Assembly: GCA_964388035.1 (NCBI GenBank)
Contig: CAYLZE010000026.1
Location: 33,223-50,938 of the forward strand
Reading direction: 5' to 3'
Source of the DNA: an uncultured archaeon
GTDB taxonomy: Archaea > Asgardarchaeota > Lokiarchaeia > Sigyniarchaeales > SOKP01
DNA length: 17,716 nucleotides
Part shown: positions 7,590-16,711 of the stretch, piece after piece
Position numbering within the stretch: the first letter of the stretch is position 1
Layout of the letters: each line of letters starts with the position of its first letter
Notes under the pieces: generated by a model
Databases searched by the model: none
The model's input: the letters and a program-made list of their open reading frames with translations, nothing else
What the model was told of the DNA's origin: nothing
Translations under genes and position numbers: made by a program

Positions 7590-8936
7590 ATGAAGGTTAT
7601 AATCGTTGGAAACGGCGTTGCGGGGACTTTTTCTGCACAAAATATAAGAAGTCTCGATAAAGATGTATCCATTCAAATTTTCACGGAAGAAAAATATCCA
7701 TATTACACAAGGGTTAAGCTACCAGAACTTATCTCTGGAAGAGCGACTATTGAGGATTTAATCGTTTATGATGAGGAATGGCATGAAAAAAACCATATTA
7801 AACTCAATTTAAATACAAAAATAAGAAAAATTGATACTAATGCTAACCAAATCTATTTAAATGAGAATAATGAACCTCTTTCCTATGATAAATTGATTCT
7901 TGCTACTGGAGGTTTTCCAAGTATTCCTCCATTAAAAAACGCTAAAGAATTAATCGGGAAGGGGGTGTTTACTTTAAGAAACATTGATGATGCATTAGAG
8001 ATTAAAAAATTTATTCAAGAAAAAGGTGTAAAAAAAGTAGTTGTGATTGGAGGTGGCTTACTAGGACTAGAATTATCTCGACAAATCAGAAATTGTGATT
8101 TGGATACTACCGTCGTAGAATTTTTTCCAAGATTATTACCAAAGCAATTAGATAAAGATTGCGGCTCGTTTTTAAAAGGAGATATTGAAAAAATGGGTAT
8201 ACATGTGATCTTAGATGCGCATACACAAGAAATTTTAGGGGACAAATATGCTAAAGGAATCGCAATAAAAGATAAACCCGACGTAGAAGCAGATATGGTA
8301 TTAATCCAAGCAGGAGTAACGCCCAATATAGATTTAGCAAAAGAAGCTAATATAGAAACAAATAAAGGAATTATCGTTAATAACTATTTAGAAACAAGTG
8401 CAGTTGACGTGTTTGCCGTTGGTGATTGTATTGAATATGAGAAACAGACCTGGGGAATTATTCCGGCTTGTATAGAGCAGTCAAAAGTTATTGGGGCCTC
8501 AATATTAGGAAAAGAAGAAAAGAAATATACCGGAACTGTCCCTAAAAACACGCTTAAGATTGTTGGGATTGATCTAACTTCGATAGGTGTTTTTGATCCC
8601 GAGGATAAAGATTTGGTAGGTGCGGGATGGCAAATATTAAAAAATATTGATAAGAAAAGCAATTGTTATAAAAAAATTGTTCTTAAAGACCATAAATTAA
8701 AAGGGGCGATATTATTTGGGGAGAAAAAAGGCATCCCCTATATCAATAAGCATATTGAATCAGAAGTGAATGAGGAAGAACTAAGAGAAGCAATAGAAAT
8801 GTTCATATGGAAATGTGAGAATTGTGGATACATTTACGATGAAGCCGAACAAGAAATTCCATTTAAAAGTTTACCAGGAGATTGGAAATGTCCTGATTGT
8901 AATGGACCTAAAGAAAATTTTAAAAAGACAGCATGA
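7590..8936 (+). CDS. NAD(P)H:rubredoxin oxidoreductase-like flavoprotein with a fused C-terminal rubredoxin domain
   Basis: GNGVAG, LILATG, GGGLLGLE and VFAVGD motifs; C-terminal WKCENCGYIYD...LPGDWKCPDC from about 8799. Confidence 0.9.
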   Translation: MKVIIVGNGVAGTFSAQNIRSLDKDVSIQIFTEEKYPYYTRVKLPELISGRATIEDLIVYDEEWHEKNHIKLNLNTKIRKIDTNANQIYLNENNEPLSYDKLILATGGFPSIPPLKNAKELIGKGVFTLRNIDDALEIKKFIQEKGVKKVVVIGGGLLGLELSRQIRNCDLDTTVVEFFPRLLPKQLDKDCGSFLKGDIEKMGIHVILDAHTQEILGDKYAKGIAIKDKPDVEADMVLIQAGVTPNIDLAKEANIETNKGIIVNNYLETSAVDVFAVGDCIEYEKQTWGIIPACIEQSKVIGASILGKEEKKYTGTVPKNTLKIVGIDLTSIGVFDPEDKDLVGAGWQILKNIDKKSNCYKKIVLKDHKLKGAILFGEKKGIPYINKHIESEVNEEELREAIEMFIWKCENCGYIYDEAEQEIPFKSLPGDWKCPDCNGPKENFKKTA

Positions 8937-8996: not shown

Positions 8997-9134
8997 ATGA
9001 TTTTCCGATGCAGAAAATGCAATTATTTATATATAGATGAAGAACATGAGATTCCCCTTCATGAAGTTAAAAAAGATTTTTGCCGTCCCCGATGCCGATG
9101 TTCAAAGAAAATGTTCATAGAGAAATTTATTTAA
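8997..9134 (+). CDS. Divergent basic rubredoxin-like protein (45 aa), not in the ORF track
   Basis: MIFRCRKCNYLYIDEEHEIPLHEVKKDFCRPRCRCSKKMFIEKFI aligns without gaps to the downstream rubredoxin. Confidence 0.7.
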   Translation: MIFRCRKCNYLYIDEEHEIPLHEVKKDFCRPRCRCSKKMFIEKFI

Positions 9135-9579: not shown

Positions 9580-9915
9580 ATGGCAATTGATGGAAATTTT
9601 ATTTTAAATTTAATATGCTCTCTTGGAGGCATTGTGTTTTTTATATACAGTCTTATAATTATTAGAAACATTAAAGCCCTATTTCCGGGAGCAAATCTCA
9701 TAAAAAAGTGGCTGATAATTCAAGTTTTGATACTGCTATTTCTTGTAGGATATGTATGCAATATTATTTTTTTAGCCCTTGATATATTTGAAATCGTGAC
9801 AATAATGACAGCTATCGTCTACTTCTTTGGTGGGTTATTCGTTTTGATTGTAATAAATTTGAGTTATAAGACCTATAAATTAATTGTCCTTGATTCGGAA
9901 ACAACAGAAAAATAA
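9580..9915 (+). CDS. Small membrane protein with three predicted TM helices
   Basis: Three hydrophobic stretches of about 20 aa in 111 aa; 17 nt upstream of the longin gene. Confidence 0.8.
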   Translation: MAIDGNFILNLICSLGGIVFFIYSLIIIRNIKALFPGANLIKKWLIIQVLILLFLVGYVCNIIFLALDIFEIVTIMTAIVYFFGGLFVLIVINLSYKTYKLIVLDSETTEK

Positions 9916-9932
9916 GAGTTAAAGTAATTATT

Positions 9933-10331
9933 ATGTCCTCCATAATTAAAGAGCTCTGGGTATTCTCGGGAGATGGAAGTCCTATCGTTGATTTTTGTGA
10001 AGAAAAAAAAATAGATGAAAATTTCATTGGAGGATTTATAACAGCGATTAAAGCATTTAGTACGGAATTAACGGGGAAAGATTTAAAAAGTTTTACTATT
10101 GAAAATAATAAATTTACCTGTACATCTGCACTTGAAGGAAATGTTATCCTCGCGTGCCGCTGCGCCTCATCTACCAATGATAAAACCATCCAAAAATTAT
10201 GTACGATTCTCGTACAAATATTTAACGAACTTTATAAACCTAGTGATATTAAGAATTGGAATGGAAATTCGGCATATTTCGACAAGTATAAAAAAAGAAT
10301 CGATCTTTATTTTAAATTGGGAAATTTATAA
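9933..10331 (+). CDS. Longin-domain-like protein (Asgard-type)
   Basis: Pattern ELWVFSGDGSPIV (beta1-beta2), DENFIGGFITAIKAFSTEL (alpha1), LKSFTIENNKF, and C-terminal helices with WNGN..YF, as in longin/roadblock-like proteins of Asgard archaea. Confidence 0.72.
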   Translation: MSSIIKELWVFSGDGSPIVDFCEEKKIDENFIGGFITAIKAFSTELTGKDLKSFTIENNKFTCTSALEGNVILACRCASSTNDKTIQKLCTILVQIFNELYKPSDIKNWNGNSAYFDKYKKRIDLYFKLGNL

Positions 10332-10538
10332 TTACTTCAAAATTTAAATCTACTCGTTTTTTAAATAATATTATTCTCAAAACCCATAATTAGTTAGGTA
10401 ATTAGAGGATAAAATTTTAATTAATATTTGATAGAAATCAACTTTATAACGGGGTTCAAAATAATAATTAATAGCATAATTCATGAAATAACTCTTAAAA
10501 GGTGAATGTAAATAACTCTCTTTGAAATAATAAAAGAT

Positions 10539-11720
10539 GTGCTTTTTGTTGGATATGTTGATTGGGAAGTCAGAAACTTCCATGGTTATTCTACTCATCG
10601 AGGTTCCTCGTATAATGCATATATTGTCAAGACTGGGCAAAAAACAGTATTAATTGATACGGTAAAACGTCCATATTTTGATTATTACCTGCAAAATATA
10701 AGAGAAGTCGTCGATCCCGCTGAAATTGATTATTTGATTATTAACCATGTTGAACCGGATCATTCGGGGGCATTCCCCGAGATCTTGAAATATTTATCTA
10801 AAGCTGAAGTAATCGCATCAGAAAAGGGTGTGGAAAATCTTAAATTGCATTATCATAAAGAAATTAAGGATGAAATATTCGATAAAATTAGAAAGGTTAA
10901 GCAAGGGGATACTTTGGATATAGGAGATGGCAAATCCTTTACTTTTGTTCCTATCCCCATGATTCATTGGCCCGATTCCATGGTCTCCTTTATGAGCGAT
11001 GCAAAAGGAAAAAATATTTTGTTTTCAAATGATGCATTTGGTCAACATTATGCGACTTCAAAAATATGGGATGATGAAAATGACCTTTCGATTGTAATGG
11101 CTGAAGCAGAGAAGTATTATGCAAATATTTTATTGCATTTATCTCGATTAATTGCTAAAGTATTACCTGCTGTTGGGGCTTTACCTATTGATGTGATATG
11201 TCCCTCGCACGGGATATGCTGGAAAACCCACCTTACAACCATTTTAGATGCTTATAAGAAATGGTCAGCAGGAGAAATTGAGGAAAAAAGCGTATTAATC
11301 GTATATGATACCATGTGGGGTAGCACGGAAAAAATAGCCATTCATCTCTATCAGGGATTTAAAGATCGCGGTATAAAAGTTAAGAGATTCTGCTTGACTC
11401 ATGCGGATTATAGCGATGTAATCACTGAAGCAATGAAAGCAAAAGCAATCCTCATTGGAAGTCCCACTTTAAATAATGGTATGTTCCCTACCGTGGCAGA
11501 ATATGTCTGTTATCAAAAAGGTCTAAAACCAATGAATAAAATTGGATTAGCTTTTGGCTCTCACGGCTGGGCGGGAGGCGCAGTTCGAGAAATAACGAGA
11601 GAAATGCAAGGTGCAGGAATTGACATGATGGAGGATACAATTGAAATTCAATTTGTACCCACTGCAGAACAGCTTAATTTTGATGAGATTATTGATAAAG
11701 TTATAAAAAAAATGGAGTAA
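10539..11720 (+). CDS. fprA: Flavodiiron protein (A-type flavoprotein, O2/NO reductase); true start may be 10512
   Basis: Diiron ligands NHVEPDHSG, HWPD, FSNDAFGQH and PSHG; flavodoxin motifs YDTMWGSTE, GSPTLN and FGSHGWAGGA. Confidence 0.96.
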   Translation: MLFVGYVDWEVRNFHGYSTHRGSSYNAYIVKTGQKTVLIDTVKRPYFDYYLQNIREVVDPAEIDYLIINHVEPDHSGAFPEILKYLSKAEVIASEKGVENLKLHYHKEIKDEIFDKIRKVKQGDTLDIGDGKSFTFVPIPMIHWPDSMVSFMSDAKGKNILFSNDAFGQHYATSKIWDDENDLSIVMAEAEKYYANILLHLSRLIAKVLPAVGALPIDVICPSHGICWKTHLTTILDAYKKWSAGEIEEKSVLIVYDTMWGSTEKIAIHLYQGFKDRGIKVKRFCLTHADYSDVITEAMKAKAILIGSPTLNNGMFPTVAEYVCYQKGLKPMNKIGLAFGSHGWAGGAVREITREMQGAGIDMMEDTIEIQFVPTAEQLNFDEIIDKVIKKME

Positions 11721-11737
11721 AATTAGAGGTTTAAATC

Positions 11738-12919
11738 ATGGAATTTAAATTAAATGAAGAACAAATTGCTTTGAAACAAAAAGCCAGGGATTTTGCCATA
11801 AAAGAAGTATTGCCCGTGGCAAAAAAATATGATGAATCTGAAGAATTTCCTTTAGAAGTTATTAAAAAAGCGCATGAACAGAGATTATTGAATCTAGCTA
11901 TTCCAAGCAAGTATGGGGGATTAGGGCGAGGTTTATTAGATTCCTGTTTGGTTGTAGAAGAAATGTCTTCTGCATGTCCCGGTATCGCTACCTCCATTTT
12001 TGATAATAATTTAGGAGCAGAACCTATTATTATCGGGGGCAATGAGGAACAAAAACAGAGAATTCTTTCTGATTTAGTAAAGGAATTTAAATTAATTGCT
12101 TTTGCAACCTCAGAACCAACGATGGGATCGGATGTTGCTGGGATGAAATGCAAGGCAGAAACAGATGGTGATGACTACATCCTTAACGGAACTAAATTCT
12201 GGATAACTAATGGAGGATATGCGGATTATATAACCGTTTTTGCCACCATTAATCCCGAATTAAAACATAAAGGAATATGTACCTTTATCGTTCCTACTGA
12301 TTCGGAAGGCGTAACATTAGGGAAACAGATTCCCAAATTGGGTCAAAGAGCATCTAACACCGTCTCTGTTGTACTAAAAAACGTAAGAATAAAGAAAGAA
12401 AACGTTTTAGCAAAGCCAGGAAGGGGATTCGTTTTAGCCATGCAAACTTTCGCCCATACTCGACCTGCTATAGGTGCATTTGCTGTAGGATGCGCGCGTT
12501 CCGCGATGGAATATTCAATAGATTATGCCAAGAAAAGGAATGTCTTTGATCACTCCATCGATCATTATCAAGCAATACAATTTAAAATTGCAGATATGTT
12601 TAAAGATATTGAAGCTGCCAGATTATTAACTTATAAAGCAGCTTGGGAAGCAGATCAAGGATTAGACAATAATCTCAGCTCTTCAATTGCCAAAGCCTTT
12701 GCCTCGGATGTTGTAATGAAAGTGACCACTGAAGCAATTCAAATATTTGGTGGTTATGGATATTTAAGAACATATCCCGTTGAAAAGTTATTTAGAGATG
12801 CAAAATTATATCAAATTTATGAAGGAACTTCTGAAATTCAAAGAATCGTCATCTCACGTTTTGCTATGAAAACTTATGAACATGCCATGCCAAGTTTGTT
12901 TAAACGCGATAGAAAGTAG
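11738..12919 (+). CDS. Acyl-CoA dehydrogenase (short/medium-chain type)
   Basis: [54 protein letters not shown] (catalytic Glu in YEGT); GAGGT SD; 17 nt after fprA. Confidence 0.96.
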
Positions 12920-14341: not shown

Positions 14342-16711
14342 TTAATTAGGTTCTTTTTCGATGGGATATCCTTTTCTATGCCACATCATCATTCCCCCAA
14401 TTAGATTTCTTACGTCTTTGTAACCCGCATTAGCTAATAATTGAGCAGCCATCATGGAACGGGCACCTGATGCACAAATCATGATTATTTCCTTATCTTG
14501 ATAATTTTTTAGACGCTCTAAGTCATTCATCAATTCTCCTAAAGGTATTAATTTAGCTCCTTTAACATGGCCCCCTAAGCCATGGAATTCTTGGGGAGAT
14601 CGCACATCAACCAAAATTGATGGTGAATCCGCTGAATCAATGCGTTCATATAATTCCTCAACACTTATTTCACTAAGCGCCGGAGCATTCGGACCTCTCC
14701 TTTGTGCTCGGGGCTGCTTTCCCATTTTAATCGGGATCTCAATCTGCTTAACCCCCGTGTCCTCTTTCTCTAAAATAGCTGCCAACTTGCTTCCTTCTTT
14801 ACCCATGTGGATTAAATGCACTGCCTCATTCAATTTTACATATGCTTCCACGCTCGATTTAAATCCCGGATCTGTGGCACTAATTTTAAGCTTTTTTCCT
14901 TTAGGAAGGGTCTCAAGTCCTTTAATTAACGCATTTAAAGGTCCTGGACAGGATAATCCGCAAGCATCCACTTCCATGAATTCATCCGATTCCTTTATCT
15001 TTTGCTCTATCATTTCATCCATTATTTCTTCTCCGGGACCACATTCTGCCGCAATTTCCTCGTTTGTTGCTTTAGCCATTTTATATAATTTATATCCTCC
15101 GGTGAGATTAAGAGCATTATATCCCTTTTGTATTAATAATCTCGTAGCTAAGTATCCCCGAAATCCAACCTCGCAAAAAACATAAATGTCCTTAGTTTTA
15201 GGGATTTCATTGAGTTTGCTTCTCAATTCTAAATCATCAATATTTATCGCATCTTCAATCGTGCCCAATTCATACTCCTCTGGTGTCCTTACATCAAGGA
15301 AAATACTATTATTTTTTTTAATTTCCTCAACTTCATTCCATTGCCAAATAGGATGGTCCCCTCTTAAATAATTGGACGCAACGAAACCCGCCATGTTGAC
15401 GGGATCCTTTGCGGAACTAAAGGGAGGTGCATATGTGAGCTCTAATTCTTCAAGATCATAAACCGTTCCCCCGTACTTTATCACGGTAGAGATCACGTCT
15501 ATGCGCTTCTCCGTTCCTAAACCTCCCACGGCTTGTGCACCTAAAATTTTGCCACTCGGTACTTCAAAAAGTAATTTCAACGTGATGGGAATCGCACCGG
15601 GATAATATTCTGCATGATTATTTGGATGAATAAATATTTTCTCATATTGAAGCGGCATTGAGCTTAATTGTTTCTCATTTAAACCAACAAAGGATACTAC
15701 CATATCAAAGACTTTAAGAACGGACGCGCCCAAAATTCCTTCATATACTGAATCGCGTCCCGCAATATTATCGGCTGCGATGCGTCCTTGTTTATTAGCA
15801 GGGCCCGCCAAAGGAATTGCAGTAATATCCCCCGTTTGAAACTGTTTTACCTCCACGGCATCCCCTACCGCATAAATATTGGGATCCGAGGTTCGCATGT
15901 GATCATCTACTTTTATATGACCCTTAGGGCCAATCTCAAGTCCGGCTTCCACCGCTAATTTATTATCAGGACGCACTCCTATTGCTAAAATTATCATGTC
16001 TGTTTCAATCTTTTTTCCACTCTTTGGAATGACGAAACTACAATCGTCTTCACATTGAAAAGAATCAACGGCATCTCCTAATTGCAAACAAACACCATTC
16101 ATGATTAATTCCTGGTGGACGAATTGTGCCATTTCTCTATCAATAGGAGCTAACACTTGATCCAACATTTCAATTATCTTTACCCGTACTCCCAATTTTC
16201 TTAAATTTTCTGCCATCTCTAACCCAATATATCCTCCACCCACTAGGGTTGCATGCTTCACGTCATTGTTTTGAACATATTCTTTTATTTTTACGGAATC
16301 CGGAATAGTTCTAAGCGTGAATGTAGGAACCTCCTCCAATCCCTTAAAAGGGGGGATCACGGGATTGGCCCCTGGAGAAAGAATCAAATAATCATAATCC
16401 AATTCATAGATGGAATTTGTGTTATAATTCTTTATTTGTAGCTTTCTATTCTCTTTATCAATCTTTATCGCTTCATGAGATACTCTCACGTCAATATTGA
16501 ACCGATCAAAAAACGTCTCAGGAGTCATCAACTCTAATTGACTACGCTCTTTAATGACATTTCCCACATAATAGGGCAATCCACAGTTAGCAAAAGAAAC
16601 GTATTGCCCCTTCTCAAGAACAATTATCTCTATATCTTCCCTTAAACGCCTCAGACGGGCTGCCGATGTAGCGCCTCCCGCAACCCCGCCGACTATTATC
16701 ACTCTTTCCAT
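14342..16711 (-). CDS. cdr: CoA-disulfide/persulfide reductase fused to rhodanese, TusA/SirA and a second rhodanese domain
   Basis: GGVAGG, SFANCGLPY (CoADR catalytic Cys), GGGYIGLE, YAPPFS; rhodanese 1 DVRT..E / CEVGFRG; TusA DACGLSCPGP / ATDPGF; rhodanese 2 DVRS..E / CASGARS / GGMMMW. Confidence 0.93.
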   Translation of the reverse strand: MERVIIVGGVAGGATSAARLRRLREDIEIIVLEKGQYVSFANCGLPYYVGNVIKERSQLELMTPETFFDRFNIDVRVSHEAIKIDKENRKLQIKNYNTNSIYELDYDYLILSPGANPVIPPFKGLEEVPTFTLRTIPDSVKIKEYVQNNDVKHATLVGGGYIGLEMAENLRKLGVRVKIIEMLDQVLAPIDREMAQFVHQELIMNGVCLQLGDAVDSFQCEDDCSFVIPKSGKKIETDMIILAIGVRPDNKLAVEAGLEIGPKGHIKVDDHMRTSDPNIYAVGDAVEVKQFQTGDITAIPLAGPANKQGRIAADNIAGRDSVYEGILGASVLKVFDMVVSFVGLNEKQLSSMPLQYEKIFIHPNNHAEYYPGAIPITLKLLFEVPSGKILGAQAVGGLGTEKRIDVISTVIKYGGTVYDLEELELTYAPPFSSAKDPVNMAGFVASNYLRGDHPIWQWNEVEEIKKNNSIFLDVRTPEEYELGTIEDAINIDDLELRSKLNEIPKTKDIYVFCEVGFRGYLATRLLIQKGYNALNLTGGYKLYKMAKATNEEIAAECGPGEEIMDEMIEQKIKESDEFMEVDACGLSCPGPLNALIKGLETLPKGKKLKISATDPGFKSSVEAYVKLNEAVHLIHMGKEGSKLAAILEKEDTGVKQIEIPIKMGKQPRAQRRGPNAPALSEISVEELYERIDSADSPSILVDVRSPQEFHGLGGHVKGAKLIPLGELMNDLERLKNYQDKEIIMICASGARSMMAAQLLANAGYKDVRNLIGGMMMWHRKGYPIEKEPN

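Follow-up and report, generated by a model that had tools for sequence, protein, structure and literature searches.

Acyl-CoA dehydrogenases (ACADs) are generally taught as ETF-dependent enzymes. Class A flavodiiron proteins (FDPs) accept electrons from rubredoxin and reduce O2 to water, and their canonical electron donor is NAD(P)H:rubredoxin oxidoreductase (NROR), which acts from NADH via rubredoxin; Moorella FprA (1ycf) and Desulfovibrio ROO (1e5d) belong to chains of this kind. The butyryl-CoA:oxygen oxidoreductase (BOOR) of Fusobacterium nucleatum, reportedly described by Bystrom and Wolthers in 2024, is said to consist of a protein called BCR and an adjacent FDP, FN1423. According to a review (PMC12288474), BCR is a fusion of Bcd, the EtfA C-terminal domain and rubredoxin, the FDP is encoded by a separate adjacent gene, the two proteins form a complex, and butyryl-CoA (-10 mV) is coupled to O2 through rubredoxin and the FDP. 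The review thereby rules out a BOOR in which the FDP is fused to the ACAD and rubredoxin, as the earlier note on the DNA considered here had described the Fusobacterium enzyme.

The DNA analysed here, a stretch of 17,716 nucleotides from an uncultured Lokiarchaeial (Promethearchaeia) archaeon, an affiliation with which its nearest homologs agree, that we call the window, carries genes for an NROR, rubredoxin, an FDP (fprA) and an ACAD on one strand (Table 1). The fprA stop codon (TAA, 11718-11720) and the ACAD start codon (ATG, 11738) are separated by exactly 17 nt, and the GAGGT motif within this gap lies 7 nt 5' of the ATG; the earlier note had read the gap and the motif correctly. The ATA start that it proposed for fprA is plausible as well, with GGTGA ahead of it and a location at the start position of the orthologs, where 17 of 30 have ATG and 10 of 30 have ATT; starting instead at the GTG of position 10539 would remove part of the first strand of the protein. 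Judged from these orthologs, non-canonical starts look common in the Asgard lineage of the window. Scans for sigma-70 promoters and terminators, a type of scan unsuited to archaea, gave hits at chance level only. An in-frame ATG-TAA occurs immediately 5' of the fprA ATA (window 10500-10514), and in 3 of the 10 orthologs that start with ATT the next codon is ATG.

Table 1. Location of the fprA–ACAD gene pair, its putative ribosome-binding motifs and the associated rubredoxin genes in the window.
Feature	Position	Strand	Basis
NAD(P)H:rubredoxin oxidoreductase (NROR) with fused C-terminal rubredoxin	7590..8936	+	Pfam Pyr_redox_2 + Rubredoxin_C + Rubredoxin
Basic rubredoxin-like ORF, possibly degenerate	8997..9134	+	No Pfam match; ortholog comparison
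Free rubredoxin, 44 aa	9269..9403	+	Pfam Rubredoxin, E=1.5e-15
SD-like GGTGA, 6 nt ahead of ATA	10501..10505	+	Sequence; ortholog starts preceded by similar motifs
fprA, predicted class A flavodiiron protein (FDP), 402 aa, probable ATA start	10512..11720	+	Pfam, PDB match, ligand motifs, ortholog starts
SD-like GAGGT inside the 17-nt fprA–ACAD gap	11726..11730	+	Sequence
Predicted MCAD-branch acyl-CoA dehydrogenase (ACAD), 393 aa	11738..12919	+	Pfam, 1ukw, ortholog C-termini, trees

The rubredoxins, placed by the earlier note just over 1 kb upstream on the same strand, are where it put them: the free rubredoxin gene ends 1.1 kb upstream of fprA on that strand, with two unrelated genes in between. 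What had been overlooked is the NROR-rubredoxin gene, the canonical NADH donor. All three components of the chain from NADH through NROR and rubredoxin to a class A FDP are thus present in the window with their motifs intact, and the ACAD is a conserved further gene that the canonical chain lacks. The NROR gene is conserved in the cluster among relatives, many of which have a free rubredoxin gene immediately 5' of fprA or of the ACAD gene. The two intervening ORFs of the window (9580-10331), one small and hydrophobic and the other Fuz/longin-like, were not seen at the same place in the relatives mapped. A small basic rubredoxin-like protein is kept directly after the NROR gene in relatives; the corresponding ORF of the window has CRPRC as its second Cys knuckle, compared with CP(R/K)C in the orthologs. 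No ETF gene and no beta-oxidation gene besides the ACAD occurs in the window according to the ORF list and a Pfam scan of ten ORFs, which bears out the earlier note on this point; etfBA genes lie on other contigs.

The FDP consists of the Pfam domains ODP/Lactamase_B and Flavodoxin_1 with no extra domain, matches 1ycf with E=2e-98 and retains its diiron-ligand motifs (HxExDH, H152, D174 and H233). On the basis of this metallo-beta-lactamase plus flavodoxin architecture and the ligand set H-x-E-x-D-H, H, D, H, it is assigned to class A. At the positions of E. coli D52 and S262 it has Lys and Trp. A 2026 study reports unchanged kinetics in such selectivity variants (PMC13133992), and we therefore downgraded these residues as a diagnostic of O2 versus NO reduction. 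A second FDP encoded in the same genome has no adjoining ACAD gene.

The ACAD has all three ACAD domains by Pfam, and neither an EtfA nor a rubredoxin domain. Its best PDB match by both sequence and fold is the Thermus thermophilus MCAD 1ukw (TM 0.94, 50% identity), and its catalytic Glu362, at the position of MCAD Glu376, is invariant in 79 homologs. Fold and catalytic Glu position are those of the medium-chain ACADs (1ukw; human MCAD in its ETF complex, 1t9g), whereas the enzyme of the window differs from them in having Glu212 replaced, other pocket-floor residues and a conserved C-terminal tail, in the lack of visible etf or beta-oxidation neighbours, and in having relatives that bear rubredoxin fusions. 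At the pocket floor, F88/D89 stand where pig MCAD has E99/A100, a hint of a different chain preference. MCAD Glu212 contacts Arg249 of ETF (PMC10925408). None of 77 members of the ACAD family has Glu here. Beyond the family, the residue is Glu in only 97 of the 150 closest cluster representatives, and about 35% of other ACADs, MCAD-like enzymes of Thermus and Deinococcus among them, lack it. Since Glu212 is this variable beyond the family, we downgraded it as a diagnostic of ETF use, and its loss is weak evidence for ETF independence.

The locus resembles BOOR in that an ACAD gene sits beside a co-oriented class A FDP gene, rubredoxin is the presumed carrier and the proposed overall reaction is the same (acyl-CoA + O2 to enoyl-CoA + H2O). 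In contrast to BCR, which is about 635 aa long and includes EtfA, the ACAD of the window is a 393-aa, ACAD-only protein; rubredoxin is free in the window and fused directly in relatives, with no EtfA domain. In quick, midpoint-rooted trees (as are all trees here) with two BCR-FDP loci as BOOR references, the ACAD family is a single clade that lies with the MCADs and is separate from BCR, which groups with Bcd-type and ETF-linked ACADs. The FDP is only 30% identical to its Fusobacterium counterpart and falls in another clade, the gene order is reversed, and NROR is encoded alongside. BOOR itself is marked by an ACAD and an FDP that form a stable complex and reduce O2 to H2O with electrons from butyryl-CoA, but do not act as an NO reductase. 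The proposal of the earlier note, that the BOOR chain exists here as separate proteins, does not hold, given that an EtfA relay is absent and both proteins are of other clades; we rejected the window as a split copy of BOOR. Because it misses two BOOR-defining features, the EtfA-containing fusion and the BCR clade, we regard the Asgard system as a convergent variant and not as a BOOR proper, a predicted analogue assembled independently of BOOR that probably works like it. We found no description of the ACAD-rubredoxin/FDP family in the literature searched, the coverage of which is incomplete.

The fprA–ACAD system is real and conserved, and it is probably functional. In the reading that we prefer, to which we give a probability of roughly 0.6, electrons from acyl-CoA would pass through the ACAD and rubredoxin to the FDP and O2 independently of ETF, in parallel with the NADH, NROR and rubredoxin branch. 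Acyl-CoA would be oxidized to enoyl-CoA at the FAD of the ACAD, as the fold and the catalytic Glu suggest. The ACAD would then hand electrons singly to rubredoxin, in the window the free protein, which would reduce the adjacent FDP, and the FDP would reduce O2 to water (NO may be a substrate too). NROR would feed the same rubredoxin pool from NADH, and this pool probably supplies rubrerythrin and superoxide reductase. The effect would be to remove O2 by means of a weak reductant that is hard for a fermenter to dispose of, with NADH spared. That acyl-CoA electrons reach O2, the part of the earlier note's inference that stands apart from BOOR, is well supported by genomic context, and BOOR provides a precedent. 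Neither outcome that the earlier note named as refuting, a unique adjacency or an ACAD that reduces only ETF, was observed: the adjacency recurs, and several relatives have the ACAD but no detectable ETF.

The adjacency that the earlier note saw in one genome is widespread. In a class-level sample of 151 Lokiarchaeia genomes, the ACAD family is found in 113 (116 copies) and the FDP clade of the window in 83 (85 copies). An ACAD gene lies directly downstream of 82 of these 85 FDP copies, 79 by coordinates and 3 with the ACAD cut by a contig end; of the other three copies, two abut a contig edge and one, in G012, has no link to an ACAD gene. The adjacency is therefore not unique to the genome of the window, and it is far beyond chance. 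Related genomes are not independent observations and shared descent explains part of the 82/85 count, but it does not account for a link that survives replacement of the FDP. In seven genomes (G006, G118, G129, G027, G029, G031 and G033) the same slot is filled by an FDP of a second clade, about 32% identical to the first, and in three others (G030, G039 and G143) such an FDP lies at most 0.7 kb from the ACAD gene. Sister genomes of the three in genus g6 (G006, G118 and G129) have an FDP of the first clade at this place. In families f2 and f4, too, the second clade adjoins the ACAD gene or lies nearby. Both FDP clades are paired with both ACAD subgroups, from which we conclude that the link survived replacement of a partner.

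Where the FDP has been lost, the ACAD gene usually follows a free rubredoxin gene (G053, G058, G108, G128, G131, G141 and G001). For instance, in G001, which belongs to the genus of the window, a large deletion has left remnants of fprA between an intact rubredoxin gene and an intact ACAD ortholog that is 86% identical (L063:7365-8278). Two genomes of 97-98% completeness (G003 and G015) have an ACAD-rubredoxin and rubrerythrins, with no FDP found. No FDP was seen, within the flanks examined, near any of 42 bacterial ACAD-rubredoxin loci (Desulfobacterota, Smithellaceae and spirochaetes), and the five bacterial genomes tested all have a rubredoxin-FDP locus at another place. Given the retention of the ACAD after FDP loss, the bacterial loci without an FDP and the NROR donor, rubredoxin rather than the FDP looks like the constant partner. 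ACAD-rubredoxins without an FDP, in the two archaeal genomes and at the bacterial loci, count against the proposed chain. In genus g4 (four genomes), neither an intact ACAD nor the FDP clade of the window was found; one of these genomes (G016) has a frameshifted ACAD ortholog with no FDP nearby (L080).

These losses also bear on the possibility that electrons flow the other way, from NADH through NROR and rubredoxin to an ACAD that reduces enoyl-CoA, as an ETF-free fermentative sink with FDP and ACAD as alternative acceptors on one rubredoxin pool. The potentials of rubredoxin and of the acyl-CoA/enoyl-CoA couple are both near 0 mV, so the step would be reversible; moreover, the order NROR, rubredoxin, ACAD stays where the FDP is lost, and some ACAD-bearing genomes have no FDP that we could find. 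However, such a flow would forgo the energy gained by a bifurcating ETF-Bcd. Each ETF operon of the genome includes an ACAD of its own, and in one of them EtfA bears a ferredoxin; the ACAD gene next to fprA, for its part, sits among genes for rubrerythrin, superoxide reductase and FDP. We consider this direction quite improbable.

One indication that the preferred chain runs through rubredoxin comes from fused relatives. About 43 of the 116 ACAD copies have long frames (447-533 aa), and those examined end in a C-terminal rubredoxin, either long and canonical (PF00301) or short and of the rubrerythrin type (PF21349); the fused ACAD-rubredoxin relatives are 445-480 aa long and have no EtfA domain. 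In a quick tree, ACADs with the long rubredoxin group with unfused ones like that of the window, those with the short rubredoxin form a separate branch, and members from other Asgard classes are unfused. Given the two rubredoxin types and the unfused Asgard outgroups, two independent fusions are the simplest reading, in which case the split state in the window is probably ancestral. We initially supposed that the ACAD of the window had lost a fused rubredoxin; with the unfused outgroups included, we favour an ACAD that was never fused, though a loss is still conceivable. Among 38 longer homologs (689-2000 aa) there was no ACAD-FDP fusion, which is weak evidence. We infer transfer from ACAD to rubredoxin because of the two fusions and the gene order; we further propose that it is direct from FAD, runs in the oxidative direction and has O2 as the final acceptor. 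The EtfA flavin that BOOR keeps between ACAD and rubredoxin counts against direct transfer.

Alternatively, O2 could itself oxidize the reduced FAD of the ACAD; rubrerythrin would remove the H2O2 so formed, and the FDP would only be co-regulated. Some bacterial Bcd enzymes show such side oxidase activity, rubrerythrins are present in five of five genomes tested, and the ETF-contact Glu is lost. A fused rubredoxin would then be needless, H2O2 production would be costly for a strict anaerobe, and the ACOX Pfam match of the ACAD is below cut-off; we regard this route as very unlikely.

The genome of the window does encode ETF, in two etfBA operons, one on contig C15 and one on C4, both preceded by an ACAD gene of their own. 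It is thus conceivable that the FDP is fed by NADH, NROR and rubredoxin alone, and that the ACAD works with ETF in the usual way and is kept in an oxidative-stress operon by co-regulation or history. The complete NROR-rubredoxin-FDP chain in the window suffices to feed the FDP and counts against the need for an ACAD donor. Similarly, the lack of a fused carrier on the ACAD, together with two ETFs able to act in trans, counts against the preferred chain, and the persistence of the ACAD past FDP loss would be expected of a passenger. Such an arrangement leaves unexplained the two different rubredoxin fusions, the adjacency kept through FDP replacement and the ACADs kept in genomes without detectable ETF, and we judge it unlikely. 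ETF alpha and beta were not found in seven ACAD-bearing genomes (G011, G024, G140, G146, G150, G025 and G032), five of which have an unfused ACAD adjoining the FDP, as in the window. Among them, G011 is 99% complete and G032, Ca. Harpocratesius repetitus, is a single scaffold. Within genus g14 (G032, G025 and G028), all three genomes lack detectable ETF alpha and beta and have 5-8 ACAD matches each. Given that the seven genomes are mostly MAGs and keep other ACAD paralogs, the absence of ETF is supportive only.

From the perspective of evolution, bacterial ACAD-rubredoxins, such as BBO71953.1 of Desulfosarcina alkanivorans, nest within the Lokiarchaeial short-rubredoxin branch in the quick tree, with a Helarchaeota protein as the nearest outgroup. 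When the Asgard sequences were constrained to form one group, p-AU was 0.022, but this group was chosen after seeing the tree, and the bacterial proteins had been collected for their resemblance to Asgard queries. Transfer from archaeon to bacterium is therefore a lead, not a result. We tentatively entertain a wider scenario, which is possible yet doubtful as a whole: Lokiarchaeia would have independently evolved ACAD-to-rubredoxin transfer without an ETF flavin, reducing O2 and peroxide with acyl-CoA, the unfused form in the window would probably be ancestral, rubredoxin would have been fused twice, and one form would have passed to Desulfobacterota, Smithellaceae and spirochaetes. This widespread bacterial family (L134-L176, L182; P0088; Desulfosarcina, Smithellaceae and spirochaetes) is annotated merely as acyl-CoA dehydrogenase.

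If the proposed chain is correct, a direct ACAD-to-rubredoxin route would be new wiring, as even BOOR keeps an EtfA flavin, and strictly anaerobic Asgard archaea could cope with O2 by means of amino-acid or fatty-acid intermediates. Such a capacity would matter for understanding how, prior to mitochondria, organisms related to the host lineage of eukaryotes dealt with oxygen. The system is present in the cultured P. syntrophicum MK-D1 (G038), where one strand encodes both the ACAD-rubredoxin (QEE15297.1) and the FDP (QEE15303.1) at a distance of about 6.9 kb, and hence it is testable now.

In further support of the preferred chain, two other Asgard families have an unfused ACAD homolog near genes for rubredoxin, rubrerythrin or FDP. 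In most loci of Asgard family f12 (L192-L197 and L211), an unfused ACAD homolog instead follows an hdrC-hdrB-hdrA-hdrA/MvhD-like cluster and a gene for a large Fe-S protein, which is possibly another ETF-free coupling. Elsewhere in the window, on the opposite strand (14342-16711), lies a gene for a 789-aa protein in which a CoA-disulfide-reductase-like portion is joined to a rhodanese, a TusA and another rhodanese domain.
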